Shown here piece after piece: positions 3,801 to 63,284 of a stretch of DNA of 64,000 bases. The position numbers and the translations under genes are program-made. Under the pieces are notes generated by a model. That model did not search any database. It saw only the letters and a program-made list of their open reading frames with translations, and was not told the DNA's origin. Position 1 is the first letter of the stretch, and every line of letters starts with the position of its first letter. Source of the stretch: a virus; IMG/VR virus record IMGVR_UViG_3300001450_000023, positions 15,790 through 79,789 of that record. One strand, given 5' to 3'.

Positions 3801-3832
3801 AAAAGGGTAGATTTTATCTACCCTTTTTTTTT
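3801..3832 (+). terminator. intrinsic terminator
   Basis: AAAAGGGTAGAT-ttt-ATCTACCCTTTT plus T run. Confidence 0.8.
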
Positions 3833-3887: not shown

Positions 3888-3913
3888 AAAGGTGCTAATA
3901 GCACCTTTTTTTT
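3888..3913 (+). terminator. intrinsic terminator
   Basis: AAAGGTGCT-aat-AGCACCTTT plus T run. Confidence 0.75.
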
Positions 3914-14800: not shown

Positions 14801-17800
14801 GTATATGGTTTTCCATTAAATGGAGGTAATGGTAAATTTCTTTGAATTAAAGTAGGAATAGAATTATATAATCTTGTTTTATCTAAATCTTGACTTGTTG
14901 CATTATTATATTTAATTAATGATAATCCATTATCATTATCTATTTCATACTCAAATGATTTAATCAATGGATTTTTTAATACCATTGCTTTTACAATCAT
15001 ATCATCAGAACCATTTAAAGAATTTAAATATTTAGCTAATGATTCACCATCTTTTTCAGTAAATGATCTTTGTCTTTCATCAAATACATTGTCTGTACTA
15101 AATAATGATAAATTACTACTGTTAATTAATTTAGTAAATTCTTTTTTAGTTTTTTGATTAGCTTCAATTACTTGTAATTCATTAGTAGAATCTATATTCC
15201 TTAAACTTGCTATTTGACTAAGAGCATTACTTAAATTTCCTTGATCATATGGAAAATGTTGTTGCCATAATTCATGAGCAGAATACACAGAATTAGCTAT
15301 CATTTTACCTGCTATAGTAGTTGGAGTAAATGTTAATACTGTTCCTTCTCTTTCTAAAATTACAACATCACCTTCTTCAGCTTGAGATTTCTCTGAAACT
15401 TTTCCAAATAATTTTAAAAATGGAGAATAAACTTCTTTTGATTTTCTTACATCTGCTCCAGCAATTTTAGATAAACTTGGATCTTCTAAAAATAAAGATT
15501 CAAATTTTTGTTTTTTAGCTATAACATCAAAGAAAGATTTACCTAAACCTTGTGAATCTATATTTAATAAAGATTGTACTTTTCTTAATTGTTTTCCTTG
15601 AGTATTATAGTCTAAAAATCTTTCTAAAATTAAATATTGTGTTTTAGGATCATTGCCTTTATTTTGAATTTGTTGCTGTAAAACACTTCCATTTATTTCT
15701 TTAAATTCATTATCAATAGCTCTTTTAATAAGTGCAGCATCTTCTGGCATTAAAGCATTTTTTAAATCAAATTGTGATAATATTAATAATGTATCTGAAT
15801 CATCTCCAATATATTTATCATAAACTATCTTTAAAGCTTCTGCTTGTTTATCTTCAACATAAGGAGCTATAATTGAATTTAAGTTTATTAAAGTGTTTAC
15901 ATAATCTCTAATAATAGGTTGATTTAAAAATAATCCAACTATAGAATTACCATTTTCATCTTTATCAAATCCCATTAAAGTCATTACTTTATCTACATCA
16001 AATGTTTCTTTATTTAAAAACAATTTTTCTAATGCCTGTTCTTTAGCATTATCTGTAGCTAAGTTTTGTCTTGCTGTTAATACATCAGAAATATCTCTTT
16101 GATTTGGTCCTGCTGTTTTTAAATCACCATAAAATTTATTAGATGTAATACTTCCAAAAGAATTTTGTGAAGTTGCAATAGAATTTTGATTTAATAAAGA
16201 ATGGAATACCACATCTATTGAATATGCACCAATACCTACTTTACCAGATGCACCAAGTTTTACTAAATTTTTCTGATAACTATCAGATAACATAGTAAAT
16301 GATTCTCCAGTATTAATATCATCAGCATTTGCAAAAGTAACTAAATCATCTATTTTTTGAGCTTGTCCTTTTTCCCATTCCATAGATAATGCTTTACTTA
16401 TCTTGGATTGCATTTTAGGATTAGATAATACAGAAGAATGTATTTTAACAATATTATTTTTATATATTTTTTTAAGTCTATCCTTTAACTCTTTTATCCT
16501 TTCAGGACTTTTTGGAGTTTTTGAATCTAACTCACTTTGTATTTTTTCTACATTATCAGAAATTACTTTTATATTACCATTTTTATCTACATAATGATAT
16601 AGACTGTAATTAGTTTGTTTATCAATATCAAAATCAAGACCTACTTGAGTAAGAGTATTTCTAGGAACAACCATTAAATCACCAGCTTTAGGTGGTAAAA
16701 ATCCTACAATTTCTACATCTAACATAGATTGGTGTGATGAAGTAGGAGTTCTAAAAGATATATTAGATAATAATTCTTTATCAAATTTATCTTTTTTAAG
16801 CACATATTTATCATTTTTTAATTCTACATATCCATCAAATAAATCTATTAAATTACCTTTACTATCTTTAAATCTAGAAGGAAGATAAACTTGTGTTTTA
16901 TGAACTATAGAACCATCTTTATTTATTTGAATTCCTTTTAAATCTCCATCAAAATTTTCATCTAAATAAATAATTTGATTCTCAATATCTTCTGAAACTT
17001 CAGTTACTTGTTTATAACCTTCTGGAGAAGATACTACAAAAGTATTTCCTGGAAATTTTAATTTAGCTATTCTATTTGAAACTACAGAGTTAAGTAATGC
17101 TTCTAAATTATTAGAACTTGGAGATAGCCATAATGGTAATTTAAATTGATATCCTGTTATTTTTCCACTACCATCTTTTGCATAAGTGTAATCTATTTCT
17201 AAAGAATCAACAACCTGTTGTTCATAATTTCTTTCTTCAGCTTCCTCTTTTAATAATTTTTTTAATTTATTAGCAGTTTTTTCAATATCTTTAGGTATTC
17301 CAGTTTTAACATCAATACCTAATTCATCATATAAAGTTTCTTTTTCAAGATCTAAAAGGTCATTAAAATTATCAAAGAATTTTCTTTCTAATGCAGAACC
17401 ATCAATAGATTCACCTTTGTATTGAAAACCTTTCATACTAGTTACACCATTACCAAATAACAGTTTAGTAGTTTGTGTACCTTGTGATACTGTATCTTTT
17501 TTGCCTTTATATGGAACTTCTTGTTGTATTCTGAAATTTTTTCTATCTAATAATAAAGAAGAATTTTCAAATTCTTTTACTAAGGTGTCAACATCATTTT
17601 GCATGATATTGCCATTATCATCAAATATAGTTGCTGAATTTGAATTTGCTCCTACTTTATTTGCAGTATTATATGATAATCTAACTTTTTTATCACCACT
17701 CTTTGCTTCAAGTTTTTCCATTGCTTGTCTTACTACATCTAATTGTGTACCTTCAGTTATCTGAGGAAGCAATGGGATAGAAGATGATTTTATATATACA

Positions 17801-20800
17801 GTTCTAAATAAAGGATTGTCTTGTGTTCCTTCTATAATTTGACCTGTGTATACAGGTTTCATAGGTTGATATACAAATGCAATTAATTCTTTTTCTTCAG
17901 CATTCATATCTTTTAATGCCTTACCTGATTCTACTAATTCTATTGCATTTTCTAATCTTGCACTATCAATTAATCCAGGATTTGCTTTACCTAATTTTTC
18001 TAATACATGAACATGCTCTTTCCAAGTTGTATATTCTTGGGCATCTGTACTTTCTATATTAAAGAAAGGTTTTGTATTAGGATATTTATTAATAAATGCA
18101 TCTAATTTATCTGAATCATTTTTTACTCTATCATATTCATTTTGATCAAAAGTTTTGTTATCTAATAATTTAGTTAAAGATGCTAAGTTATTAGCAGGAC
18201 CTTCTAAATCATTTACAAAAATTTGAATATATTGTTCTTGATCTGAGTCAGCAAGTTTATTACCAGGAGCTATCATTGCTGCTAATCTCTTATTAATATT
18301 TTCAGCAGTATTTTTAGATATATCAGCAAAATTATCAGCCTTAGATCTTTTATAATACATTGCAGGATCTCCTGCTAATAGCATAAACTGATTAGAATTT
18401 GATATCATATTATTTACAACAAATTCTATTGCTGAATATATAATTTTATTATTATCAGAAAGATTAGGATCAATAGAATTAAATTTATTTAAATAATCTA
18501 CATCTAATAATTTATTATCATAAACTTTAAGTTCTCCTAAAGGACTAGATTCTACAATATTATAAGTTTCCCAATCATTTAATTTTTGTTTATATTGAAT
18601 TCCAACAGTCTTAGTTAAATAATTTTTTGCTTCTTTTTCAAAATTTTCTAAAAAATTAAATTCATCAGGGTTTGTATTTTTTAAATTTTCTTTATCATTA
18701 TTTAAATATTGTTGCATTAATTTTGGAAATCCTTCTATATCATTAGCTAACTCTGTTAATGTTTTTTTCTTTCCTTTATAATCAATAATTAAAGAATTTA
18801 AGTTAGGGAACATTAAAAATGATCCAGCACCTTTATTATATCCTTTTATATTTGAACCAATTTTTTCATTTAAAAAATTAGTAATTCTTTCAAATTCAGG
18901 TAATACAGTTTGTTCATATAATATATTAATCATATTTTCCCCAGGAACAACATCCCCATCTTCTTTTAAGATAAAATCATCAGCTTTTCTAAAATCTAAT
19001 GTGGGCATTGATATTGTATTAATATTAGACTTATCAGAATTAGTTAATCCTAAATAAGTAGCTGTTCTTAATAAAACACCTTGATAATTTTGCCCTTTAA
19101 AAGCACCTTGTTTCATATCAGTATATAAACCAAGTTTAACCATTTCATGGTCAGCTTCACTAAGGTCTTGTAACTTTGTTCCTTGATATGCTTTTTGCTT
19201 TCTTTGCTTTATAGATTCTAATGATAAATAATCTATACTAAATGTATTTCTAAGTTTAGTATTTTCAAGCAATTCTAATAACATAGAATGTTTAGAAAAT
19301 GCTTGCTGTAATAATTGTTTTCTTAAAAAAGGATCATTTTTTAATTCCTGCTCTCTTTCCTTAATATATGTTTTATTAATATGAGTTTGCAAAGTCTTTT
19401 TTGCAACTCTAAAAGAAGTTGGACTTATAGTATTTGCAAATAAAGCTTCTTCTATTGCATAATTTTTTAATATTGTTTCTTTTAAAATATTATTATCTTC
19501 TACAAGATTATTGTCTTTATTAATACTTGATAATTTATCTTTAATAATTTTTATTAAAGATAAAGGACTAGCTTGACCAAAACTTTCTTGAAAAGTTTTT
19601 CTACTATTTTCTGAATTTATATAAATACCATTATCAATAATATTTTTAATATTATCACTTGATAATACTATACCTACTTCTTCTAGAACAGATTGTAATT
19701 CTTTTATACTATTATCTAAATCTATTTTTTTCCCAAGTCTATCATATAAACTTAAAGCACTAGGAGTTTCTTTTACTTTATCATTAACTATAGAATATAC
19801 TTTATTATCTTTAATAAAGGTAGAACCTTCTGTTAGTTGAATACCTGCTTTTTGTAATGATGCTAAATTTTGATTTTTTATATCTTTATCAAAATCATCT
19901 ATTTTAGCTTGTGTTCGTTTTCTAACAATTTTACCCCCAGGTTTTTCATAAATATTATTTAATCTTTTAATAACTCTATCAACTTCATTTATATTATATG
20001 TATAAACACCATTGTCATCTCTTTCAATTAAAGAAGAGTCTTTAAGATTATTTTCAAATCTTTTTAAAATAATATTTGCAACTTCACTAGAATTAGAATT
20101 CATCACTTTAACATGAGGTTTTCCTTTTGAGTCTATTGAAAACATTACAAATTTCATATTCAATTTGCTCTTATCAAAAAATGATAAAAATTGATTTTGA
20201 ACTTTTTCAGGTTCAGCATTAAATTTATCTATAACCTCTTGTAAAAATGGGAATGCTTTTACATATTGATTAAGTGTAGCTAATTGTACTTTTTTAGAGC
20301 CACCAGCATTTGATAATATTTGTTGTAATATTTCTACAGTTGTATCTACAGGAATAACAGATGGTAATCCTAAAAAGTCAGTCATTGTATTAAAATCTTT
20401 ATCAACTTCTTTAATACCAGTAAGTAATTCTCTTACTTCTGCTGAAATAGAATTTTTACCACCCTCTTCTAAAGCATTTTGAGAATAATTTTTTTCTTTT
20501 TGATTTTCTTCAGATTGATTCTCTTCAAATTTATCAGGAGTTGAGACTTCTTTTAAATTTGTTTTTTTAAGAGCTTCCTCAATTATACCTTCTTTATTAT
20601 TTGATATATTATTAAGATAGTCTATTAGATGTTCATATTTTCTAATATATTCATCTTTTTGTTTTTCATCCCCAATTAATTCTTTTATTTGCTCAATTCT
20701 TTCTAAGTAGTGTTGTTTTTTTACATCTACATAATTAGATAATTGATTGTCTATTTCTTCTTTAAGTTCTGATGCAATTAAAGGTTTATCTCTATTATCT

Positions 20801-23800
20801 CTTTTATATTTTGTAATTGCATTATAAGAATAATCTACTAATGAATTAAAATGATGAACTTGTATTCCTGAATGTTTATTTAAAACTTCTGATATTTCTT
20901 CTGCACTTTCACCTGAAATTTCAACTGGTGAAAAAATCATAAGCTGACCTTCTATTTCATCAATACTTCTTAATTCATTATCAATTTTATTTTGAAGTGC
21001 TTGTTTAGAAATTTGAGTTTTATATATAACTAATTCTCTATTTGTTTTAGTGTCATTATTTATATACCCAATTAATGAAGTATATCCTGCATCTAACATT
21101 CCCTGCCTAACAGCTTCATTTTTTTCTTGCATAGTAGAGAAAGTCTTACCCTCCTGTGCTCTTTGGGAAATCTTCATAAACTCTTCTTGACCTTCTTCTG
21201 TAGTAGCATCTAAATTTTTTGAAGCATCATATTGTATTTCTACTTCTGTAACCTGCCCCTCTGTACTATCTTGAAATGCTTCATCTAAAGCAATATATCT
21301 TCCAGCACCTCTTTGAGCATTTTCTACTTTTGAAGAGAATGTTCCTTCTGTTCTAAACCCTTTTACTTTTACAATTTCAGGTTCAGTTTTATTTCCAGAT
21401 TGTTCTTGTGCTTTTAATTTTTTTAATATTTCTTCTACTTCAGAAGTTTTATTATTTAATATTGCTTTTTCTCTAGAAGTTAACTGCTCATCATTTTTAA
21501 TTTTATTTGCAATACTATTAATTCTATCTTCTGTTACAACACCATTATCAACAAAGTTATTATACTCTTCATCAAGTACTACATCTTTAACTTCATGTAC
21601 TTCTTCTAATACTTGTTCATTAGAAGCTGGTTGTACTTGAGCTTCATCAGATTCTATAGAAATTTCTATTGATGGATTTGTAGTAAATGTAGTTTTACTT
21701 TTTCCATCTCTTGTTTCATATTGAAAAGGTTTTAAATTTATTTCTAAATTGTTTGATATATGTTCAATATAATTAGAATGAGTTTTCTTAAAAGTTAATT
21801 CTTCATTACCTGTAATATCAAATGTAGGTAAATCTATTCTATTATTTAAAGTTTCAAAATTAGAAGCACCTGCTAAATCTTTAATGATAGATGAGTTATC
21901 ATGAAACTTTTTTATTCTTTCATTAAAGAAATTATTAAATTGATCTTGAGTTTTTAAATTTTGAACTTGTTTAGCAATTGAATATTTTCCAAACTTTAAA
22001 GTTTTAGTAGTGCCATCACTCATTTTTTTCCCAACAAGAATCATATATTGATGAGTAGCTGATCCAGTTTTTGGCATACTTACTAATAAACTATCTGCTG
22101 AACCATTTTTTAATGCTTTATCAAAATTATTATTTTCAATTGAAGGATTTCCTTTTGCTATACGGGTTGTTTTTTTAAAAATATTTTTAATAGTATTTGC
22201 ATCAGTTAAGTCAATACCAACTGCTTTAGCTGCTTCTACCATTTTATCAAACTGATTCATAGTTGGAAGTTTTGTATCATTTTCACTATTATAAGTGTCA
22301 ACAAAACTATCATACATAGTTCTATATTCATTTTTACCACTATAGAACATGTGGAATAACATTAAATTCTTTAATGTATCAGATTGATTTTCAGATATTT
22401 GAGAATTAAGAGTAGGGTAAATTACATATTTAGGAACATTTTTATCACCAACTTTTACAGATGTATTTCCAGGTACAACTACAAAAGTAAAATTACTTTT
22501 ACCTTTAATTGTATGATCTCCTGTTTGTGCTTCAGGTAAATTTACTACTTTACCATTTTTATCATAATAAATAAAATCACCATTTCTTGCTTTTATAGCT
22601 ATATAATAATCTTTAAGTTCTGGAATTTTAAATGTTCCACTTTCTCCTGCTGCACTTTGTGAAGCTCCTAAACTACCATTAGTTTTATTTGTAATTTTTG
22701 CTGTTAGCTTTAAATCTTTATCTGTATTACTATAAAGATTTTTTAACTTAGCTCTTATATTATTTAATTTTTCTATTTGCAATAATCTATCTTCTACACC
22801 TAAACTTTTATTATTAGAATTTTTTAGATAAGAAGGATCTTGTATTATAGCTATAATATTTCCAGATGCATCTGATACAGCTAATGGTATTTTTTTCCAG
22901 TAAAGATCATCTGCAACACTTATTTTATATTTTTCTACAAACTCTTTAAAAGTTATATATGATTGTTCTTTATCTTCTTCAGGAGAATAAGTATCAGTAT
23001 CTGATAATGTAGATTTATTATCTATTTCATCATCTAATACTAAAATATTATCTATTTTATCTGTTGAAAATGGTTGAATAGTTAATTGTTCTCCTGGTAA
23101 ATAAGATGATGGATCTAATATATAATTTGCTCCAGGAGTATCTGTACCAGGTTGTAATTTTGAATAATCATAATTACCATTTTTATCTTTTTGAAAGTTT
23201 ACAAAAGTTAGAGGAACATTTTCTACAGAATATGAAGTTTCAATTGCAGATTCTTCTTGAGATACTTCTTCAACTCTATCTGAAACTTTATCAATAAGTT
23301 TTTTTGATTCAGTTTTATTTTGATATCCTGAATCATAATCTAATAAAGAAAGTATATCTTGTTCAGGTCCTACAAAATATTTATTATATATTTCTTTAAA
23401 ATTAGCATCCCCTTTTACTAATTTATATCCTTTTGTAATAAAATCCCATTGAGTTTCTACCCTATCTTTACCAGCAGTATCTATAAAATATTTTACAAAT
23501 GTTTCAAAAGTAGGTTCAACATTATTCTCTTGAATAGAGATTTTATTTATAACATTTTCAAATTGATTTTTTAATTGCTCTTCTGTTAATACAATAGGAG
23601 AAAATGAACCAGCTTCTAAATCATTTTCTAATTCACTTTCTGTTTCAGAACCTTCTGTAGAAGTAATTGGTTTATCATTTGGAGTAATACCAAGAAGATT
23701 ATTTATACCACTTTTTAATTCTGAATTTGTATTATTAATACCTTGTTCAATAACATTACTCTCATGTGCTTCTTCATCAGTATAATTCTCTTCATGAAAT

Positions 23801-26598
23801 AATTCATATAATTCATTATTTTCATTTTGATCTTCTTCAGATAAATTAGCTATATCTTTACCAAGCTCTTTATTTTCCTGCTTGATTGCTTCTTTTTTAT
23901 TTTTCTCAGCTTCTTCAAGTTTATCTTTATAATTTTCTTTAAGATTAGTTAAAACTTCATCATCAATTTTACCTTTGTATTTTTTAGAAACATTATCAAC
24001 AACATCTTGAATTTCATTAGCTTTACCTTCAGTTTGTAAAATAGATAATTGTTTTCTTTTATTTTTAAGTTCTTGTATTAATTTAGATTCATAATATAAT
24101 TCAAGTTGTTTCTTTTTAGAAACAAAATCATTATATTGTTTATCAACAATTGATTGTTTTCTTTTTAAAAAAGATTGATTAAAAAGTAAAGATTTTAAAC
24201 CTGCAACTGAATCTAATTCAGAAGCTGATTTTTGATATTCATTAAATACTCTTTGTTCCTCTTTTGTTTCAAATTCTTGACCTTCTAATATATTATCTAA
24301 TGAAGCATCAACTTTTTGTTTAGCTTCAGGTATAAATGTTTTTTCTTCTAATTCAGAAATATTTTTATCTTTATCTTTAGAAAATTTATCTAATTTTTTA
24401 CCATCTCTGCTAATAATTTTATCATTAATTGATATTTGATTTTCTAATTTATTTATATCAATTGCATTAGCTTCTTGTTTAGATATATTAGAATCTAATT
24501 CTGTTTTTAAATTCTTATCTTCAGGATTTTGTTTTACTTTTTGTTTTAAAGCTTTTTCTTCTTTTCTTAATTGTATATTTTCACTATTAAGAGTTTTAAT
24601 TTCTAATTCACCTTCTTTATTACTTTCTTGTAATGTTCCAATATTATTATTTAAATCTGATGAATTTTTTTCAAATTCATCTTGCAGTTGTTTCTTTTCT
24701 TTTTCTAAATTTTGTTTAGCTTCTTTATTTGCTTTTCTATTATCTACTTCTGTAGTTGGTAAATTAACTTCATTAGTTAATAAATCTTTTGCAGCTAATG
24801 TTCTTTGTTCAGATATTTTAGTATCTAATTCTGAAATACCTTTCTGCACCATCATTGAATTAGCTCTATTTATATAGACAGCTTCAGCATTATAATAATT
24901 TTTATCATAAACTTCATTATAAATTTTTTCAAATGATTTAATTTCAGAAACTATTTCAGATGCTCTTCCCCTGACATCTGAATTAAAAGATTCATTACCA
25001 GCTATAGTTTCATATACTTCATATAATCTATCTGCAGTACCTGTTCTAAAATTTTGTAAAGCTTGGTGATATACAATTTCTTTTTCTAATTGTTCTGCTT
25101 GTTCTACCTTACCTTGATTTCTTAAAGCTTGAGCATCTTGTCCAATTTCTGCTATTTTTTCATAAGTATTTTGTAAACCTATAACTTGATCAACTGTTGT
25201 ATTGCCATTTATTTGAGGTAATAAATTATTAAGATCACTTACAGCTTTTTCTGCCTTTTCTGCTGCTTCTTTTCTTTTATTATATGTCATTGCATTAGTA
25301 ACTCCAATTTGAGTACCAGAACCTATAACAGCAAAGAAAGCACTTTCTAAAGTTTCTTTACTAAAAAAATCATTCCAAGCATCTGATCTATTATAATCCT
25401 GTCCTTTACCATATGCAGTACCTATTTTAGAAGCATATCTTTCTATAACTGCTTCTTCTATAACTTCTTGTCCAGCTTCAAATGCAAAAGTCTTTGCAAA
25501 ACCTTTTTGTCCTCCAAGTAATCCCCCCAATCTAGCTGCTTGTGTTGGAGCACCTTGTGATACCATTCCTGCAATACCTCTTGTTGCTAATAAACTCCCA
25601 GTAAAATTTAAAAAGAAAGAAGCTGCATTTATTTTCATAGTTAAATCAGCACCAGCAATAGAATTATCTCTTGCTTGTTGAACTATATCAGCATTATCTT
25701 GCACCCATGCAGAACCCCATTCTTCTGAAGATTGTTGAGCAAATTCTTTAGCAGCAGTTTGTAATTGTTCAGGAGAAAGTTTATTTTTATTTTTTTGTGC
25801 AAAATCAGCATAGGCTTTTCTATATGCATTTTCTTTACCTGAAGTATATCCATTTTCATCCATATGATGTTTAAAAACAGTATCATATGTTTCTTTACCA
25901 AGCATTGATGATATACCTTGTGTCATTAATGCAGAAGTAACAGCCCCAGTAATTCTCTTCTTAGCTTTTTCTCCTAGTTTTGTAGCTTTACCTAATTTAC
26001 CAAGTCCTTTAAATGTTGCTTGACCAATTTTTGTACTAATACCACCAAAACTTGCTAAACTACCTATTACAGCAGAAGTTCCATTTAAACCCCAATTTAA
26101 CCAATCTGATCTAGTATTTATTTGATTATCTTGAACAAATCCTTTTATTGCATCATTGACATCATTATTAGCTATCCAATTACCTACATAATCTTCCCCA
26201 TCCCCAATAAAACTATTGTCTATTAATTTAGATATTTCAGATAATCCTTTTGTTCCTGTTACTATTGATAAAGCATTACCAACATAAGGTATTTTTTCAA
26301 CAGCATCTAATGTATGATGCCAATCACCAACATCTAAAATTCCACCTACAAAATCTAAAGTAGAACTTAATATAGTACCAACAGTATTACCAGTAAGTTT
26401 AGCTCCTGTAGTAAAAAAATTATCATATTCTTTAGGATTTTTTTCAGCTTCAGCTATTTTTTTTTCAGCAACTTTTTTTGTTACAACAGGAGTAAATGAT
26501 GTAAGTTGAGGTAAACCAGTTCCAGCTTCAACTGCTTCTTTTTCTGAAGTCTGCAAATCATTACTTATACTTTGAAGTATATTATTAGGATCTGACAT
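11839..26598 (-). CDS. virion-encapsidated RNA polymerase polyprotein (crAss-like double-psi barrel RNAP)
   Basis: 4919 aa; FRTP..S, GLDFDIDK catalytic motif (16621-16635), TDAQEY, DNAK; zincin HELIH (13948-13962). Confidence 0.92.
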   Translation of the reverse strand: MSDPNNILQSISNDLQTSEKEAVEAGTGLPQLTSFTPVVTKKVAEKKIAEAEKNPKEYDNFFTTGAKLTGNTVGTILSSTLDFVGGILDVGDWHHTLDAVEKIPYVGNALSIVTGTKGLSEISKLIDNSFIGDGEDYVGNWIANNDVNDAIKGFVQDNQINTRSDWLNWGLNGTSAVIGSLASFGGISTKIGQATFKGLGKLGKATKLGEKAKKRITGAVTSALMTQGISSMLGKETYDTVFKHHMDENGYTSGKENAYRKAYADFAQKNKNKLSPEQLQTAAKEFAQQSSEEWGSAWVQDNADIVQQARDNSIAGADLTMKINAASFFLNFTGSLLATRGIAGMVSQGAPTQAARLGGLLGGQKGFAKTFAFEAGQEVIEEAVIERYASKIGTAYGKGQDYNRSDAWNDFFSKETLESAFFAVIGSGTQIGVTNAMTYNKRKEAAEKAEKAVSDLNNLLPQINGNTTVDQVIGLQNTYEKIAEIGQDAQALRNQGKVEQAEQLEKEIVYHQALQNFRTGTADRLYEVYETIAGNESFNSDVRGRASEIVSEIKSFEKIYNEVYDKNYYNAEAVYINRANSMMVQKGISELDTKISEQRTLAAKDLLTNEVNLPTTEVDNRKANKEAKQNLEKEKKQLQDEFEKNSSDLNNNIGTLQESNKEGELEIKTLNSENIQLRKEEKALKQKVKQNPEDKNLKTELDSNISKQEANAIDINKLENQISINDKIISRDGKKLDKFSKDKDKNISELEEKTFIPEAKQKVDASLDNILEGQEFETKEEQRVFNEYQKSASELDSVAGLKSLLFNQSFLKRKQSIVDKQYNDFVSKKKQLELYYESKLIQELKNKRKQLSILQTEGKANEIQDVVDNVSKKYKGKIDDEVLTNLKENYKDKLEEAEKNKKEAIKQENKELGKDIANLSEEDQNENNELYELFHEENYTDEEAHESNVIEQGINNTNSELKSGINNLLGITPNDKPITSTEGSETESELENDLEAGSFSPIVLTEEQLKNQFENVINKISIQENNVEPTFETFVKYFIDTAGKDRVETQWDFITKGYKLVKGDANFKEIYNKYFVGPEQDILSLLDYDSGYQNKTESKKLIDKVSDRVEEVSQEESAIETSYSVENVPLTFVNFQKDKNGNYDYSKLQPGTDTPGANYILDPSSYLPGEQLTIQPFSTDKIDNILVLDDEIDNKSTLSDTDTYSPEEDKEQSYITFKEFVEKYKISVADDLYWKKIPLAVSDASGNIIAIIQDPSYLKNSNNKSLGVEDRLLQIEKLNNIRAKLKNLYSNTDKDLKLTAKITNKTNGSLGASQSAAGESGTFKIPELKDYYIAIKARNGDFIYYDKNGKVVNLPEAQTGDHTIKGKSNFTFVVVPGNTSVKVGDKNVPKYVIYPTLNSQISENQSDTLKNLMLFHMFYSGKNEYRTMYDSFVDTYNSENDTKLPTMNQFDKMVEAAKAVGIDLTDANTIKNIFKKTTRIAKGNPSIENNNFDKALKNGSADSLLVSMPKTGSATHQYMILVGKKMSDGTTKTLKFGKYSIAKQVQNLKTQDQFNNFFNERIKKFHDNSSIIKDLAGASNFETLNNRIDLPTFDITGNEELTFKKTHSNYIEHISNNLEINLKPFQYETRDGKSKTTFTTNPSIEISIESDEAQVQPASNEQVLEEVHEVKDVVLDEEYNNFVDNGVVTEDRINSIANKIKNDEQLTSREKAILNNKTSEVEEILKKLKAQEQSGNKTEPEIVKVKGFRTEGTFSSKVENAQRGAGRYIALDEAFQDSTEGQVTEVEIQYDASKNLDATTEEGQEEFMKISQRAQEGKTFSTMQEKNEAVRQGMLDAGYTSLIGYINNDTKTNRELVIYKTQISKQALQNKIDNELRSIDEIEGQLMIFSPVEISGESAEEISEVLNKHSGIQVHHFNSLVDYSYNAITKYKRDNRDKPLIASELKEEIDNQLSNYVDVKKQHYLERIEQIKELIGDEKQKDEYIRKYEHLIDYLNNISNNKEGIIEEALKKTNLKEVSTPDKFEENQSEENQKEKNYSQNALEEGGKNSISAEVRELLTGIKEVDKDFNTMTDFLGLPSVIPVDTTVEILQQILSNAGGSKKVQLATLNQYVKAFPFLQEVIDKFNAEPEKVQNQFLSFFDKSKLNMKFVMFSIDSKGKPHVKVMNSNSSEVANIILKRFENNLKDSSLIERDDNGVYTYNINEVDRVIKRLNNIYEKPGGKIVRKRTQAKIDDFDKDIKNQNLASLQKAGIQLTEGSTFIKDNKVYSIVNDKVKETPSALSLYDRLGKKIDLDNSIKELQSVLEEVGIVLSSDNIKNIIDNGIYINSENSRKTFQESFGQASPLSLIKIIKDKLSSINKDNNLVEDNNILKETILKNYAIEEALFANTISPTSFRVAKKTLQTHINKTYIKEREQELKNDPFLRKQLLQQAFSKHSMLLELLENTKLRNTFSIDYLSLESIKQRKQKAYQGTKLQDLSEADHEMVKLGLYTDMKQGAFKGQNYQGVLLRTATYLGLTNSDKSNINTISMPTLDFRKADDFILKEDGDVVPGENMINILYEQTVLPEFERITNFLNEKIGSNIKGYNKGAGSFLMFPNLNSLIIDYKGKKKTLTELANDIEGFPKLMQQYLNNDKENLKNTNPDEFNFLENFEKEAKNYLTKTVGIQYKQKLNDWETYNIVESSPLGELKVYDNKLLDVDYLNKFNSIDPNLSDNNKIIYSAIEFVVNNMISNSNQFMLLAGDPAMYYKRSKADNFADISKNTAENINKRLAAMIAPGNKLADSDQEQYIQIFVNDLEGPANNLASLTKLLDNKTFDQNEYDRVKNDSDKLDAFINKYPNTKPFFNIESTDAQEYTTWKEHVHVLEKLGKANPGLIDSARLENAIELVESGKALKDMNAEEKELIAFVYQPMKPVYTGQIIEGTQDNPLFRTVYIKSSSIPLLPQITEGTQLDVVRQAMEKLEAKSGDKKVRLSYNTANKVGANSNSATIFDDNGNIMQNDVDTLVKEFENSSLLLDRKNFRIQQEVPYKGKKDTVSQGTQTTKLLFGNGVTSMKGFQYKGESIDGSALERKFFDNFNDLLDLEKETLYDELGIDVKTGIPKDIEKTANKLKKLLKEEAEERNYEQQVVDSLEIDYTYAKDGSGKITGYQFKLPLWLSPSSNNLEALLNSVVSNRIAKLKFPGNTFVVSSPEGYKQVTEVSEDIENQIIYLDENFDGDLKGIQINKDGSIVHKTQVYLPSRFKDSKGNLIDLFDGYVELKNDKYVLKKDKFDKELLSNISFRTPTSSHQSMLDVEIVGFLPPKAGDLMVVPRNTLTQVGLDFDIDKQTNYSLYHYVDKNGNIKVISDNVEKIQSELDSKTPKSPERIKELKDRLKKIYKNNIVKIHSSVLSNPKMQSKISKALSMEWEKGQAQKIDDLVTFANADDINTGESFTMLSDSYQKNLVKLGASGKVGIGAYSIDVVFHSLLNQNSIATSQNSFGSITSNKFYGDLKTAGPNQRDISDVLTARQNLATDNAKEQALEKLFLNKETFDVDKVMTLMGFDKDENGNSIVGLFLNQPIIRDYVNTLINLNSIIAPYVEDKQAEALKIVYDKYIGDDSDTLLILSQFDLKNALMPEDAALIKRAIDNEFKEINGSVLQQQIQNKGNDPKTQYLILERFLDYNTQGKQLRKVQSLLNIDSQGLGKSFFDVIAKKQKFESLFLEDPSLSKIAGADVRKSKEVYSPFLKLFGKVSEKSQAEEGDVVILEREGTVLTFTPTTIAGKMIANSVYSAHELWQQHFPYDQGNLSNALSQIASLRNIDSTNELQVIEANQKTKKEFTKLINSSNLSLFSTDNVFDERQRSFTEKDGESLAKYLNSLNGSDDMIVKAMVLKNPLIKSFEYEIDNDNGLSLIKYNNATSQDLDKTRLYNSIPTLIQRNLPLPPFNGKPYTTRMLAQDLVNYSLLEGGVQEAIQFSKFIPVSYLLATGYDSVAYNENSDLNSMVQPIASDENKNEYPSRWQIQYFQHNTNELQSPPRKPKYNSKDQTISFPLANSKNKAELEYYAGMYKFKVEGERYPFYRIGPNKWKRADKLSTFGTNEYDINTSNDSIVTILKSKEEKNDLIEKGIEDKYAGMESSSDSIEESSAVNTKNHIKDGNLQKSIDSIVNADLGNLSYLAETLNQILPDDIKLVVRDLTKYKAAGAYLNNTIYIDSKFLNTNDESTVAEKLIHELIHAVTETTLEKYVEIEQDGRANLKSVPDIPKPVRDLVTVFNYARGKFEKDNPGVIASTIVKRDNFEGLSNNEYTAYGLTNLKEFLSLLSNDNFRAELDKMGYKNSGESVLQRIKKVLIDLVNNVKTSLNLDAENVDVLSAAFDSLFQIAEIQTKKKITSIQPDINDADKVINDVNNLLDTKKDEFNITIGKLPYTIKDVNTNPKLFNSSQEEITDELQIAKGVANYLYQYDKSEYNKRFFSDNDLQKNNITTYAGNDVFMIDNNKALVISRNKVVEELREPGQDLRNLYAGKPIIQSKLQIDEQIENKEQEIAIKERELNQLQMESEMLDTNPYLFILDNLPKITPDSAQKETGGKIGSKKDINPSFIGKKGVSVERAAEDMMIPAEKAGVVLSEMEIRDEIIEILLTGKKKYKQLRGDVKNSEMVALKSEIKILENELTELKKDKKNGGEQLTLFSPSIDDSSVIESLNNLTDKFMDLEWKMEGYGDRETYYGIESDIIKQNKISDEIKTIINNPINQLELFSLGNNMATIFELFPPEMQNLTIRVKIPLKSVVEKFGSDNRYQNYFKTSDNKYYENNQYGLEDYGKVEEISEKEYREAFSNASTTGYGVIVSQDIIPFDFEKIIKKLDINNQFSEEEINNLVQLYESNDTDNKTLAGDIIKGRLEGEWGYYDAQNRIEAAVMEAGNKKQIENLIDKSENNCR

Positions 26599-29950: not shown

Positions 29951-32900
29951 CTAATTACTTTTTTTCACCTCTGTTGTTGCATCTTCTTCAGTTGTTGTTT
30001 CTTTTTTAGCTGTTTCTTCTTGTTCAAATTGTTTAATTATTCTTTGCACTTCTTTTGCAGTAGATGATGTACCAGTTGCTACTTGATAATATTCATAATT
30101 TCCTCTAGCATCTTTTCTTATACCAATACCATATGGACTAAGCATAGGCATTAATTTATTAATATCTCTATCATATTCTTTAGCATTTAATCCTTTACCA
30201 CCAGCTTGCATTGCAGCACCCATGTTAGCAACATCTTGATTAAGAGCTGTAAAGAATGCATCTTTATCTGCTGTATCTTTATCTGCTGCTTCTGTAGCAC
30301 CTTTAGCTTCATATAATCCTTGTTGAAATTTAAGTTGTGAAAGTTGATTATCTACACCTACCATCCCAACAGCATATTGTTGATATGCTTTATTTAACAT
30401 ATCATTAGCTTGCATGTTACTCATTTGCCCTAAAGATCTTTGTTGATTAACACTTCTAGCAGTACTATTAAATCTTCTTCTAGCATTTCTAGCAAATTCA
30501 CCAATCTTAGCTTCTTGCATATTAAACTGTTGTCCTAAGAAACCTTTTGTTCCTTCTAATGTATTAATAGCTTCTTGTCCAAATTGTTCATAAAAGTTTT
30601 GATTAGGTTTATCAGTAGCTCTACTCATAAATGTTGTAGCCATAGGTCCAAGTCCACTTACAGCAGTTCCCATTAAACCTAATTTATCACCTAAAGTAAA
30701 TTCATAAGGTTTTTCTTCTTGTCCTTGTGTTGTACTTGCAGCTTTTTCAGCAGCTATTTCATCTAAAAGAGATGTAGTATCTTCTGAGAATTTATTATTA
30801 CTTAAAGGTTCATCAATAAGTTTTACTGTAGTAGGATCATAATTTGTACTTATAGATTGTACATCAATAGGCTTCATTTTAATTGGATCATAGTTTTTTG
30901 TACTTGTATATTCAAAATCAGTAGGAACATTAATACCTAAATCAACAGGTTTCATTGTAATAGGATCATATTTTTTTCTACTTGTATCTGGAACTGTAGT
31001 AAATGCTGCAAATTCATCACCAGGGTAATTAATATTATTTTGTGCTATTAAATTTTCTAAATCTTCAGCTTCTTTATTTCCTTGAGCAGCATATTGAGCA
31101 CCAGATACCCACTCTGACATTGTCATATTATTTTCTCCAAAGTTATTAAAAATACTAGGATATGTTCCATTTTGATATTTATGAACTTTACCACCATTAG
31201 CATAATCCATATTTTTAACCATTCCACCACCAGGATATTTCATTTCCCTAGTCATTTTCCTAGTCTTACCTCCATACTTAGAAAGATATGTACCTAAACC
31301 TTTTAAGTTTTCTATAGCACTAACTTCTGCCTGAACTCTTTGCATTGCTCCATCTTGAATTTCTACAGTTTCTTTTGCTCTATTGTAACTTGCTAATAGT
31401 AAAGGATCAGTTGGATTTTCTTTAATTTTATCTTCTAAAGATTTTATATATCCTGCACTCTTTAATTTTTCAGCTGCCATAGTTTTATTTTTTTTATTTT
31501 TAATTCTTTTAGAATATATTTCAGTTTCTTCAGGAATTATTTCATTAGTCATATTATCATCTTTATCACCAACTTGAAACTTAATTCCACTTTCTTTTGT
31601 AGGATCATCACTATGGTCAGGTCCTACAAATTCTCCAACTTCACCATTAGGTGTTTCAAAAGCTTCACCACCTTCTACTTCTGCTATTGTTTCTTTTTTA
31701 ATATTACCACCAGCATAAAATTTAGCAGTTAATCCAACATCTGCCCCTTTAAATCCTTTTTTAAAATCTCCTTTAACACTACCTGTTATATCAATATTTT
31801 CAGTTAAAGGATATTGTCCTTTAACTTTAAAATTAGGTGAAAAAGTTTCATCATATATATTTTGTTCTAAAGAACCTGATACTGAACCATCACCCACTTT
31901 TCCTTTTGCAGAAACAAACATATTTCCTGGATAAGACATTCCTGTATTAAATTTAAGATTTGGATCATTTTTCTTTGAATATATAGGTAAATTTAATTCA
32001 GGAATACCATACATATCAACAAATGACTGTTGTCCTAAAAAATCAATTGAATTATCAGCTGTATTTTTAAGAGGATCTCCTTCTATTTTACCACCATCAG
32101 CATAAAATTTAAACCAATCAAGTCCTCTTTTTTGATTCATATTAGGCATTTGAGAAGATTTAGAAGGTGTTGTTTTAATAAGTGAATCATCTTTTTTAGA
32201 AGTTTTCTTTTCTGAATAAGTTTCTGGAGCATTAACACTTCCACTATATTCTTGCAATTCTTCAGGTGATAAAAGTTCACTTTTTTCTACTTGCTCTTGT
32301 CTTTCTTGTACTGGTTGTTGTTGAGTAGAACCTTGTGTATTATTTTTTGTATTATTTTGTGTATTACTTGCTCCTTGAATTTGAACTCCCATTCCTGGAA
32401 AGTATTCTTCTAATATAGGTAATGTAGTATTATTATATAAATTAATAAGTTTTTGATTATAAGTAGGAGAAGTAGCATATCCTCCTTCTGCCACAGCAGT
32501 AAAATATTTTCCAGGATCTCCTAAACTTTCTGCACTACCTCTTTTTGCATATCTAGGTATAGTAATTAATTTTATTTGTGCCATCATCCCCTCTTCAGGA
32601 GTTTCAAATTTTCTAAAAGGAGTTTTTACTTTATATTCAAGTTTACCAGTTTTTTTATCTACTTTACCAGTAGGCCCCATAAGACTATTTTCTTTTCTTT
32701 TAGCTGCCCACTTGTCAGCTTCTTCTTTATTTTTAAAATACTCTCTTGTTTCTTCTATTGTAAAAGGTTGTTTACCTCTAGCTTTAATTCCACCATAATT
32801 ATGATTTTTAGTTGCTAAACCATTACCTTCTACATAACCAGTTTCAAGAGCTACTTGAGTTGCAACAGCACCAACATCTACATTGATACCAAGTTTTTCT

Positions 32901-47142: not shown

Positions 47143-47178
47143 AAAAAAAAGAATTAGAGGGCATAACCCCCTAATTCT
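47143..47178 (-). terminator. intrinsic terminator
   Basis: AGAATTAG.GGG/CCCCCTAATTCT hairpin followed by T8 on the minus strand. Confidence 0.8.
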
Positions 47179-47196
47179 CTTATATGTTAAAGATTA

Positions 47197-50182: not shown

Positions 50183-50194
50183 TTTTTCAAAATT

Positions 50195-50231
50195 TAAAAA
50201 TAGTTAAGGGTAAATTAATACCCTTAACTAT
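50195..50231 (-). terminator. intrinsic terminator after the MCP
   Basis: TAGTTAAGGGTA-aattaa-TACCCTTAACTA plus T run on the minus strand. Confidence 0.8.
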
Positions 50232-50241
50232 ATATATGATC

Positions 50242-58464: not shown

Positions 58465-59259
58465 TCATTTTATATCTTTTGATTCTAATAGAGTATATGT
58501 AAAACTATTGCCCCATTGGGATGCTGCTTTTCTACATATATCCATAAACTCATCAAAGTCATCTGGATCTTTAAATACTTGACATCCTGCACTATACTTA
58601 TTTATGTATGTAGATGGTTTGTATGCAGATGATCTATGTATGTTTATTCCAAAATATCCATCTTGAATACTATCTTTATCATAATCATAAACATCATCCT
58701 TATTACCATCTCTATAAACTTCTACCTTCCCACTCCTTTGACATAAAGCCTCATACTTACCATTATGTTTATCTATCTTATATACTTTTTCATATTGTCC
58801 AGGAACTAAGATTGCACAACCACCTCTAGAATTCATTGGGTTGTCTATCCAATGTAAACCAGGATCTGTAGTAGCAGGCCAACAATGGAAGTGCCAGTCA
58901 TTTCCTATCTTATATGCTATAGTTATTTGGTCATCATAATGATTAGTAACCTTTCCTTTTGTAGAAGAGTTTCTTACTCCTACAATATTTACATCATAAT
59001 CACTTTGTTTAAACCACTTATACTTTTTCTCATGCATAGCATTATAAATCTGCTGTAAAGAATAAGTATGTTTTATTTCATTTATATCTTTCCATGTCTT
59101 TGCTCCTACTATTCCATCAGGTTTTAAACCATTTGCTTCTTGATATTCTTTTACAGCCTTTTCAGTATTTGGTCCAAACTTACCATCTGTTTTAAGTCCA
59201 AGTGCAGCTTGAAGCTGTATAACATATTGTCCAGTACTACCTTTTTTTAGTAACATCAT
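58465..59259 (-). CDS. peptidoglycan-binding domain plus YkuD/L,D-transpeptidase-like catalytic domain (endolysin candidate)
   Basis: PG_binding_1 repeats DGKFGPNT/DGIVGAKTW; GINIH...SAGCQV. Confidence 0.8.
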   Translation of the reverse strand: MMLLKKGSTGQYVIQLQAALGLKTDGKFGPNTEKAVKEYQEANGLKPDGIVGAKTWKDINEIKHTYSLQQIYNAMHEKKYKWFKQSDYDVNIVGVRNSSTKGKVTNHYDDQITIAYKIGNDWHFHCWPATTDPGLHWIDNPMNSRGGCAILVPGQYEKVYKIDKHNGKYEALCQRSGKVEVYRDGNKDDVYDYDKDSIQDGYFGINIHRSSAYKPSTYINKYSAGCQVFKDPDDFDEFMDICRKAASQWGNSFTYTLLESKDIK

Positions 59260-59272
59260 TTAAAATTTAAAA

Positions 59273-59468
59273 GAGGAAAGATGGATGAAAAATTATAAGT
59301 GTGCGATGACCTAAATTTATCCTATTTGTTAAATAATTAAATTAAAATTAAAATATACCATCTTTCCTCATATTTTTAAAAAAGATAGGGAAATAACCAA
59401 CCAATGTTATTTAATAATTTACCATAACTTTAAATGTTAATAAATAAAATTAAAATATACCCTATCTT
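59273..59468 (-). ncRNA. two tandem stem-closed large-loop elements (candidate small RNAs)
   Basis: inverted repeats 59273-84/59358-69 and 59382-90/59460-68; shared 17-mer; T runs after each stem on the minus strand. Confidence 0.5.
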
Positions 59469-59474
59469 ATTATT

Positions 59475-59726
59475 TTAAGAACTTTGAGAATTCCTTATAG
59501 GATATAATCCCATTTCTTTTCTTTTTTTATTTACTAGTTTTAAAATATCTTTTCTAATTAGACTTCTTTGCTTTGATCTTAAAGAACTAACATAGTCTCT
59601 AATATTAATAGCTTCCATAATACTATCATAAACACCAACACTTGTGTTCCTAGATGCACCATGTGAAACCTTCTTCATAGGAAAAGCAACCTGGTATTTA
59701 CCATTTAAAATCTTAATGTGTTTCAT
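59475..59726 (-). CDS. small basic protein, AP2-like DNA-binding fold suspected
   Basis: KHI...GKYQV...VGVYDSIMEAI..RD pattern. Confidence 0.5.
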   Translation of the reverse strand: MKHIKILNGKYQVAFPMKKVSHGASRNTSVGVYDSIMEAINIRDYVSSLRSKQRSLIRKDILKLVNKKRKEMGLYPIRNSQSS

Positions 59727-62293: not shown

Positions 62294-62615
62294 TAATTTA
62301 ATTTTGAAACTTAAAAGTATAAGTGAAAATAAAAAGCTATTATTTATTATATATACTATATATAATAGAAAAAATATAAAAATTATTTTCTTAAACAAAT
62401 ATAATTTAATTTATTTTTAAAATAATTTTATAACCCCTATTACAACTAGTTAAAGTAGTTTTTTATATAACCCCAAAAATTCACTCTTACTCAACCTACC
62501 TTACATCAAAGCCCCAGGCTTTGCTTTTTCCCCACTAACCCCCCTATCAACATTTCTTTTTCCCTTTAAGTAGCCTTGTATAAATATTTATACATTAATC
62601 TTAAATCTTTACATC

Positions 62616-63003: not shown

Positions 63004-63073
63004 ATTTAACTTCTCTATTTCCCTTTATTAATATTGGGATAGAATTATTTTATTTAATTAAATATATAATATT

Positions 63074-63217: not shown

Positions 63218-63284
63218 TTAAATACTTTTCTATTTCCCTTAATTAATACTGGACAATATTGTCATTAAAATAAATCTTGATATT

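Follow-up and report, generated by a model that had tools for sequence, protein, structure and literature searches.

What are the two tandem hairpins, each closing a loop of about 70 nt, that stand directly before the lysis genes of an uncultured marine phage? They lie in a window of 64,000 nt (the whole stretch of DNA that was analyzed), which belongs to an IMG/VR record of 79,789 bp with 27.8% G+C, classed as linear and with a CheckV completeness of ~88%. The initial annotation proposed that they form an array of small or guide RNAs, each with a constant scaffold and a variable targeting segment. As set out below, the units are not a guide-RNA array, and the description that fits them best is a terminator-type regulatory cassette in a new variant with a long loop.

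RESULTS

Two stem-closed units precede the lysis genes

The genome is laid out as small genes in a rightward block followed by a long leftward block. The latter encodes giant proteins of 1,572, 4,919, 1,092, 1,236, and 1,772 aa and carries a portal-sized gene and a 706-aa terminase-like gene. The nearest DNA matches of the genome are crAss-like and Flavobacterium phages. Taken together, the block layout, the giant proteins, and these matches point to an uncultured marine crAss-like phage with a Bacteroidota host. The 4,919-aa protein is encoded by one ORF (window positions 11839 to 26598, minus strand) among flanking frames of 1,000 to 1,800 aa, and its size and place match those of the giant crAss-like virion proteins, the injected RNA polymerase included.

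The units are located in the leftward (late) block, in a gap of 215 nt between a gene for an 83-aa protein and an endolysin-like gene (Table 1). Read leftward, the order is an amidase gene (60939 to 60280), a 182-aa gene, the 83-aa gene, the gap, and the endolysin-like gene; small membrane-protein genes come after it, and then the terminase and portal genes. The two cell-wall enzymes of this region, about 1 kb apart on the minus strand, are distinct: one has an Amidase_3 domain, and the other has PG_binding_1 and phrog_3000. Only the second comes after the units. The contig of the source run itself covers the unit region, with zero differences; across three DNA runs, it was the only sequence to span the units, and the other matches were short and unrelated.

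Table 1. Features at the junction of the 83-aa gene and the lysis genes, in window coordinates
Feature	Coordinates	Strand	Basis and remarks
83-aa gene, directly upstream of the units	59475..59726	-	ORF; weakly AP2/ERF-like predicted fold
Unit 1, 5′ arm AAGATAGGG	59460..59468	-	Inverted-repeat scan, 9-bp stem
Unit 1 loop, 69 nt, A/U-rich	59391..59459	-	Opens with constant TATATTTTAATTTTA; has TTAACA
Unit 1, 3′ arm CCCTATCTT	59382..59390	-	Duplex energy -11.9 kcal/mol
Unit 1 tail, TTTT and then AAAAATAT	59370..59381	-	
Unit 2, 5′ arm GAGGAAAGATGG	59358..59369	-	Inverted-repeat scan, 12-bp stem
Unit 2 loop, 73 nt	59285..59357	-	15-nt start as in unit 1, then TTTAACAAATAGG ... TAGGTC ... TATAAT
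Unit 2, 3′ arm CCATCTTTCCTC	59273..59284	-	Duplex energy -18.9 kcal/mol
Unit 2 tail, TTTT and then AAATTTTAA	59260..59272	-	Leads into endolysin start ATGATG
Endolysin-like gene	58465..59259	-	PG_binding_1 plus C-terminal domain (Pfam, PHROG); opens the lysis block

Reading of the minus strand, which is the sense strand, together with inverted-repeat scans reproduced the tandem stem-closed units with ~70-nt loops: unit 1 spans 59468 to 59382, and unit 2 spans 59369 to 59273. An identical 17-mer, GGTATATTTTAATTTTA, had been placed at the start of both loops. It is indeed identical and occurs exactly twice in the whole 79,789-bp record (59461 to 59445 and 59359 to 59343), but its GG is made up of the last two stem bases, which leaves 15 nt in the loop. 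The TTTT reported after each stem holds as four unpaired T residues in each unit, with the qualification that the run of unit 1 has six T residues, two of which are paired. We give no weight to the "rare CG" and the "antisense ATG" of the unit 2 loop; the ATG belongs to a 9-codon frame on the plus strand. Attenuation through a mini-ORF was considered and rejected. One frame, of 7 codons, runs over an arm of unit 2, and another, of 4 codons, is inside the unit 1 loop; neither is kept between the units or in L004, the related phage described below.

The initial annotation had also set the units between an AP2-like gene and the endolysin. The position and the endolysin-like nature of the downstream gene were borne out, and the label "AP2-like" for the 83-aa protein is plausible, not established, as it stems from weak structural matches. 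This protein has no Pfam or PHROG match. Its AF2 model (pLDDT, 84.6) shows a three-stranded sheet with one or more helices, and the top structural matches, all weak, are plant AP2/ERF domains and an integrase arm-binding domain. Comparison with AP2 domains gave VIA Z scores of 5.2 to 5.5 and Foldseek E values of 0.6 to 1.4, and the predicted topology fits AP2/ERF. We found 17 metagenome homologs, the nearest being P0006 (80% identity), P0004, P0005, P0011, and P0014; most of those examined have no unit downstream. Relatives without units also retain the 83-aa gene, so its product is not a dedicated partner of the units.

The pair exceeds the chance level

How often would such structures arise by chance? 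We scanned the genome for perfect Watson-Crick stems of at least 9 bp with at least three G/C, a loop of 40 to 110 nt, and TTTT directly after the stem. Exactly two matches were found, units 1 and 2. The same scan of 40 dinucleotide shuffles returned a mean of 0.65 such long-loop structures, with a maximum of 3. For stems of at least 12 bp, the genome has one and the shuffles have 0.025 on average. Unit 1 taken alone is without significance against the shuffles; it is unit 2, the adjacency of the two units, and the homology between their loops that make the pair nonrandom. The loops are homologous by local alignment (p ~0.0015), with the identity mostly in the first 45 nt.

In RNA folding, both closing stems are kept in the minimum free energy (MFE) and centroid structures, for each unit and for the whole 226-nt region, and the z scores of RNA folding for the two units are -2.3 and -3.9. 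When folds of the growing transcript were followed, the 5′ arm of unit 1, whose stem has 9 bp, met competing weak local pairings.

A homologous unit in a relative points to selection on pairing

Relatives were collected from IMG/VR and JGI metagenomes with the endolysin as a query and with a profile of the 83-aa protein. The stems of units 1 and 2 had been said to resemble covariation, and a search of related phages for a homologous unit with a compensatory stem found one, in L004 (an 80,496-bp record, 100% complete). L004 and the Tara-derived L074 are 100% identical over 4.8 kb, and we counted them as one genome. In this independent relative, that junction has just one homologous unit, whose stem, AAGAAAAGGCGAA/TTCGTCTTTTCTT, is different and still pairs over 13 bp, with one sense-strand G·U and a duplex energy of -14.9 kcal/mol. 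The stem closes a 64-nt loop and is followed by TTTT. AATTTAnTTnTTTAACAAATAGG, TAGGTC, and TATAAT are common to the L004 loop and unit 2 (loop alignment p ~0.002).

The stems differ in a manner that preserves pairing. Unit 2 and L004 agree in the outer stem and have different inner stems on either side (ATGG/CCAT versus GCGAA/TTCGT). Units 1 and 2 differ by two base pairs that are there or missing in both arms at once and by two further positions at which A·T in one is matched by G·C in the other. The sole non-Watson-Crick pair of the L004 stem is G·U on the sense strand and would be A·C on the opposite strand. This G·U and the polar T runs point to the sense-strand RNA as the relevant form. 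In addition to the architecture and the pairing, the window and L004 share a 23-nt loop block (21/23 identical), and the flanking 83-aa proteins and endolysins are only 46% and 71% identical, respectively. That the pairing and the loop block were kept despite such flanking divergence argues for constraint, that is, selection. These comparisons support the view that the stems act like selected pairings and, judged by sequence, the module is a real, selected, optional noncoding element.

The module is optional and was probably duplicated

Units are absent from L003/L070, L067, L068, and L072, where only 3 to 19 nt separate the stop codon of the 83-aa gene from the endolysin ATG. Among related phages the junction thus carries 0, 1, or 2 units, and by this comparison the module is optional. 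In the endolysin tree, the nearest neighbors of the window are L067 and L068 (78% identity), which have no unit, and the unit-bearing L004 is more distant. The endolysin starts with ATGATG in both unit-bearing genomes and with a single ATG in all of the unit-less ones, and it looks as if the module arrived or left along with a leader and start codon. Mosaicism in the N-terminal part of the endolysin was considered as a cause of the patchy distribution and gave no signal. We also rejected a relic of an ancestral junction: AACATTTAAAGTTATG of unit 1 resembles the L067 junction AACATTTAGATTATG, but the BLAST match is not significant. Separately, the 83-aa gene and the 182-aa gene (phrog_16390) have traded places in L066, L069, and L071, where the 182-aa homolog comes after the 83-aa gene. 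This swapped order marks the stretch just before the lysis genes as a recombination hot spot.

The tail of the L004 unit, CTTTTTTAAAAATAT, matches the end of the unit 1 3′ arm and its tail over 15 to 16 nt (a 16/16 BLAST match). With this identity, the tail of unit 1 appears to mark the duplication junction, placed after AAAAATAT. The module was probably single in the ancestor and was then duplicated in tandem, with a period of 102 nt, in the lineage of the window.

Does the module occur elsewhere? We used a descriptor (a stem of 9 bp or more in which one G·U is allowed, a loop of 50 to 95 nt, and a T run) instead of a covariance model because the MAFFT alignment shifts the unit 1 arms by two columns. 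Across ~165 kb of related loci and both complete genomes, this descriptor found the known units and chance matches inside genes only. The 17-mer has 34 matches in IMG/VR, all unrelated, one of them with a chance 8-bp partner inside a tail gene. A search of IMG/VR and GTDB genomes for TTTAACAAATAGG..TAGGTC returned chance matches only, in coding or rRNA-spacer DNA, and BLAST against GenBank phages and 401 Flavobacteriaceae genomes returned only short A/T-rich fragments. A MITE-like element was rejected as well, given arms that differ between the units, no other copies in the two phage genomes, and matches in IMG/VR and GTDB that arise by chance.

The units resemble the terminators of the phage

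The canonical terminators of this genome have stems of 7 to 16 bp and loops of 3 to 9 nt, followed by a T run, AAATTTT, and the next start codon. The unit tails (TTTT plus AAAAATAT or AAATTTTAA plus ATG) match the form of the canonical tails at 47147 to 47181 and 50183 to 50241 in the window; further canonical terminators with similar tails are found at positions -5349 and -13470 of the record (G000) relative to the window. The 17-mer after each 5′ arm is also terminator-tail-like, as a comparison with GGCTCTAT-ATTTTTTAAATTTTA at G000 position -5349 illustrates. The units therefore look like members of the terminator-leader repertoire of the phage in which the stem encloses 64 to 73 nt rather than a few. 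Another tandem arrangement, of canonical terminators, is present in the rightward block: two lie 60 nt apart on the plus strand (3801 to 3827 and 3888 to 3908), in one 204-nt gap with no ORF between them, and have ordinary 3-nt loops.

With canonical intrinsic terminators, these four in the window included, the units share a G/C-containing stem, a U run, a preceding A-rich stretch, the sense orientation at a gene end, and the T-run-plus-AAATTTT type of tail to the next start codon. They are the sole structures in the genome in which perfect G/C-containing long-loop stems of this kind stand right before a sense-strand TTTT and after an A-rich stretch. A canonical terminator has a G/C stem of about 4 to 17 bp, a loop of about 3 to 10 nt (a criterion quoted in bioRxiv 10.64898/2026.05.29.728758), and a U tract on the coding strand. 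The stems of 9, 12, and 13 bp (the last, in L004, with one G·U) are within this range. The U tract is present, with four T residues versus 5 to 10 at canonical sites. The loops had been called far too large for ordinary terminators, and at 69, 73, and 64 nt they are; since loops of 64 to 73 nt are far above the 3-to-10-nt norm, the units are not canonical terminators. They further differ in their conserved loop block and in being a tandem duplicate within an operon that has no visible downstream promoter.

This last point bears on how well they could terminate. In outline, crAss-like phages transcribe early genes with a virion RNA polymerase and middle and late genes with the host polymerase from Bacteroidota-type promoters. 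In phi14:2, a cultured marine crAss-like phage, middle and late genes use a TTG-N19-21-TAnnTTTG promoter. Upstream of g070, g075, g108, g110, g092, and g093 of phi14:2, we found TTG(C)-N19-21-TAnnTTTG in every case, the Bacteroidota type. The genome of the window has TTG-N19-21-TAnnTTTG boxes in intergenic DNA at 62403, 62293, and 52806. The sense strand of the units has neither TTTG nor a full TAnnTTTG box, and no intergenic promoter is visible from the units to the terminase and portal genes. Since their loops lack a promoter of the phi14:2 type, the units are more likely to be read through than to be transcript starts. Moreover, with no visible intergenic promoter before the terminase and portal genes, transcription must pass the units; an efficient stop would be harmful, and any termination must be weak or conditional.

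Other repeated boxes may be relevant to early transcription. A pyrimidine-rich box, T(T/A)TTTCCCTT(T/A)A within ACTT..CT.TTTCCCTTTA..AATA.TGG, is present on the plus strand of the window at 62557 to 62568, 63016 to 63027, and 63231 to 63242, and two more copies lie ahead of the window in G000, at about -15330 and -14100 in window-relative numbering. Placed after canonical terminators and before rightward small genes, it is a candidate for an early promoter, perhaps one read by the virion RNA polymerase. In G001, a relative, a different repeated box, ACTTAAAATACCA..., occupies equivalent places. At a convergent junction of gene blocks in this relative (L076 12684 to 12820, equal to G001 32584 to 32720, plus strand), two near-identical canonical terminators lie ~85 nt apart with a perfect TATATTTG box between them, an arrangement that could yield a noncoding RNA of ~55 to 60 nt.

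A proposed model of leaky termination

The anatomy of the units, their nonrandomness, their sense polarity, their compensatory stems, their patchy presence, and their duplication are established. On these features of the sequence we tentatively build the reading that we prefer: as two RNA hairpins that resemble terminators and act in a leaky or conditional way, the units would limit how much transcription continues into the lysis and packaging genes. We regard this as possible, if somewhat short of probable. The units would be transcribed within the late operon, from the 83-aa gene toward the lysis genes. Just as UUUU is made, the 5′ arm would pair with the 3′ arm across an A/U-rich loop of 64 to 73 nt, giving a weak, long-loop form of the hairpin-plus-U intrinsic terminator and, presumably, partial termination. 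The tandem pair would attenuate, without blocking, read-through into the endolysin gene, the membrane-protein genes, and the terminase and portal genes. The units may also provide a protected or stabilized 3′ end for the upstream message.

The unit-less relatives L003, L067, L068, and L072 show the module to be dispensable, which fits a modulating element better than an essential one. Besides the loop size, the short U tract, the competing pairings of unit 1, and the harm that an efficient stop would do, two observations stand against this reading. The conserved 5′ half of the loop (TAAWTTTA...TTAACA) is left unexplained by a plain terminator, and the module was found in only two independent genomes among the relatives examined.

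Alternatives to leaky termination

The patchy distribution could instead reflect recombination. By this account, a cassette of terminator, leader, and ATG was recombined into the junction and later duplicated, and what we see is its scar or near-neutral remnant; the inverted repeats would persist through youth or hairpin-templated repair, not function. Several observations fit. The module is missing from L067 and L068, in spite of their endolysin identity of 78%, and is present in the more distant L004; ATGATG is confined to the unit-bearing genomes, as if the insert carried its own leader and start codon; gene order near the 83-aa gene differs in L066, L069, and L071; and the 17-mer is similar to the ordinary terminator tails of the genome. 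There is also a precedent for mobile cassettes of this kind. The PeSL (promoter-early stem-loop) cassettes of T4-type phages combine a strong sigma-70-like promoter with a short stem-loop and occur in many dispersed copies (Arbiol et al. 2010, PMC2839356). The units are likewise small noncoding cassettes with a terminator-type stem, tied to indels and gene-order differences among close phages; unlike PeSLs, they have no recognizable promoter, their stem is built around ~70 nt, and they occupy a single locus in G000 and G001. A scar would hardly be expected to retain the loop block, the architecture, and perfect pairing at flanking identities of 46% and 71%. In addition, the arms changed through compensating substitutions and indels across the three units, which argues for selection. 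We consider a mere scar unlikely, though deserving of serious weight.

Could the hairpins be regulated? The initial annotation had named a lysis-timing RNA switch as its second option. In a conditional terminator (an RNA switch or antitermination site), a factor bound at the 5′ half of the loop would decide whether the closing helix forms and would so time the lysis and packaging genes. The factor could be the 83-aa product, a host Nus-type factor acting at the boxA-like TTTAACAA, or a small ligand. The part of the loop that is conserved in all three units is indeed this 5′ half, next to the 5′ arm. No promoter is visible for the essential genes downstream, so polymerase must at some stage be let through. 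The units stand ahead of lysis genes and behind the gene of a small, putatively nucleic-acid-binding protein, an arrangement reminiscent of the Q-tR′-lysis layout of lambda. The late control region of lambda comprises Q, pR′, the 6S RNA, and tR′, and its nut/boxA elements are antitermination sites. By analogy, the units would be a terminator that separates a small regulator-like gene from the lysis genes, with the terminase and head genes further downstream, and TTTAACAA would be a boxA core. Unlike in lambda, we identified no promoter or qut-like site, no N or Q homolog, and no boxB-like conserved hairpin at the units, and the upstream protein is also kept by relatives without a unit.

The TTTAACAA core, which equals the 3′ part of the E. 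coli rrn boxA, occurs in unit 2 and in L004. A gammaproteobacterial 16S-23S spacer, a chance find, has CTTTAACAAATAGG at the boxA position. However, the boxA-like box of one Flavobacteriaceae rRNA spacer, CGTTCATTGACA, matches the units only partially, and TTTAACAA is expected ~17 times by chance in a genome this rich in A/T (an estimate from base composition). The 83-aa gene is kept by relatives without the unit, which counts against its product as the factor. With P1-closed riboswitch aptamers of ~70 nt, such as the purine class, the units share the domain size, the closing helix, and, in unit 1, predicted internal hairpins, a structural analogy only. They differ in that there is no match to any Rfam riboswitch or leader, even at E values up to 10, the interior is 80% A/U, and internal structure and pairing are not conserved between the units. 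We regard a switch of this general kind as decidedly unlikely. A specific version of it, in which an A/U-rich domain of ~65 to 73 nt has the terminator stem as its closing helix, the boxA-like half of the loop gates late transcription, and duplication tightened the timing of lysis, seems a shade less likely again.

A third possibility is that the terminator encloses a promoter. Transcripts from upstream would terminate, and those started within the loop, which lack the 5′ arm, would run into the lysis genes. Such a design would explain expression of the terminase and portal genes downstream. The hexamers TTAACA and TATAAT are kept in unit 2 and L004, and TAnnTTT-like boxes (TATATTTT, TAATTTTA, and TAAATTTA) are found at the loop starts. 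The spacing of the hexamers, however, is 18, 23, and 29 nt among the three units and so is not conserved, and sigma-70-type sites in the unit region number fewer than in shuffles (29 versus 39). The loops also lack the TTTG and the full TAnnTTTG that both the experimentally based promoters of phi14:2 and the intergenic promoters of this genome have. An embedded promoter is thus very doubtful.

We now return to the proposal of small RNAs. Here the units would be genes for, or processed products yielding, trans-acting small or guide RNAs of ~90 to 100 nt, with the 17-mer as a scaffold and the remainder as a variable targeting part. Stem-closed units with U tails could give stable ends, as in 3′-UTR-derived RNAs, and the loops do diverge past their common start. 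But the "variable" parts show homology with one another as well as with the L004 unit, which makes them diverged duplicates, not acquired spacers. Copies are few: two here, one in the relative, and no more across both genomes and ~165 kb of related loci. The promoter type of this phage group is also missing from the units. The claimed targets fared no better. Duplex energies of the constant 15-mer and of the variable loops with 73 start regions of the phage were at the level of shuffled queries. Near-matches of the 17-mer were at the chance level (4 versus 3.87 expected); the 17-mer reads as an ordinary terminator tail, and its U-rich complementarity to A-rich leaders is a matter of composition only. 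Rfam returned noise only (E values of 0.66 to 7.6, far under the gathering scores). A tRNA-like unit was also rejected, as ARAGORN finds none by default, and at a 70% threshold it calls unit 1 among 199 calls genome-wide. No CRISPR-like signal was seen either. Phage CRISPR mini-arrays and guide arrays resemble the units in having short constant and divergent sequences arranged head to tail. The units differ from them in their 17-nt A/T-rich, terminator-tail-like constant part, their two copies, and their homologous "variable" parts, and the neighbors (amidase, endolysin, and small unknown proteins) include no effector-like family in Pfam or PHROG. The units are not a guide-RNA array, and a role as genes for trans-acting small RNAs is slightly more doubtful than an embedded promoter.

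Finally, a function at the DNA level (a protein site in the form of an inverted repeat, a cruciform, or an A/T-rich segment related to an origin or to packaging) would suit perfect inverted repeats around very A/T-rich DNA ~2 kb upstream of the terminase gene, but it is hardly credible, since the arm sequences of the three units differ and leave no common protein site, the L004 mismatch is tolerated only as sense-strand RNA, the T runs are polar, and absence from most relatives rules out an essential origin or pac site.

DISCUSSION

Whether the units are leaky terminators, as we prefer, or a scar, they are no new guide-RNA system. Even if they are no more than a recombination scar, they record cassette-type turnover by indels at a junction of lysis genes. 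If leaky termination is true, stems that close ~70 nt can work with a U tract, and such elements are excluded by design from standard terminator finders. For crAss-like phages, only the broad lines of gene regulation are known. If these hairpins attenuate or gate transcription before the lysis, terminase, and portal genes, they would provide a simple, transplantable example of how crAss-like phages tune late gene dosage.
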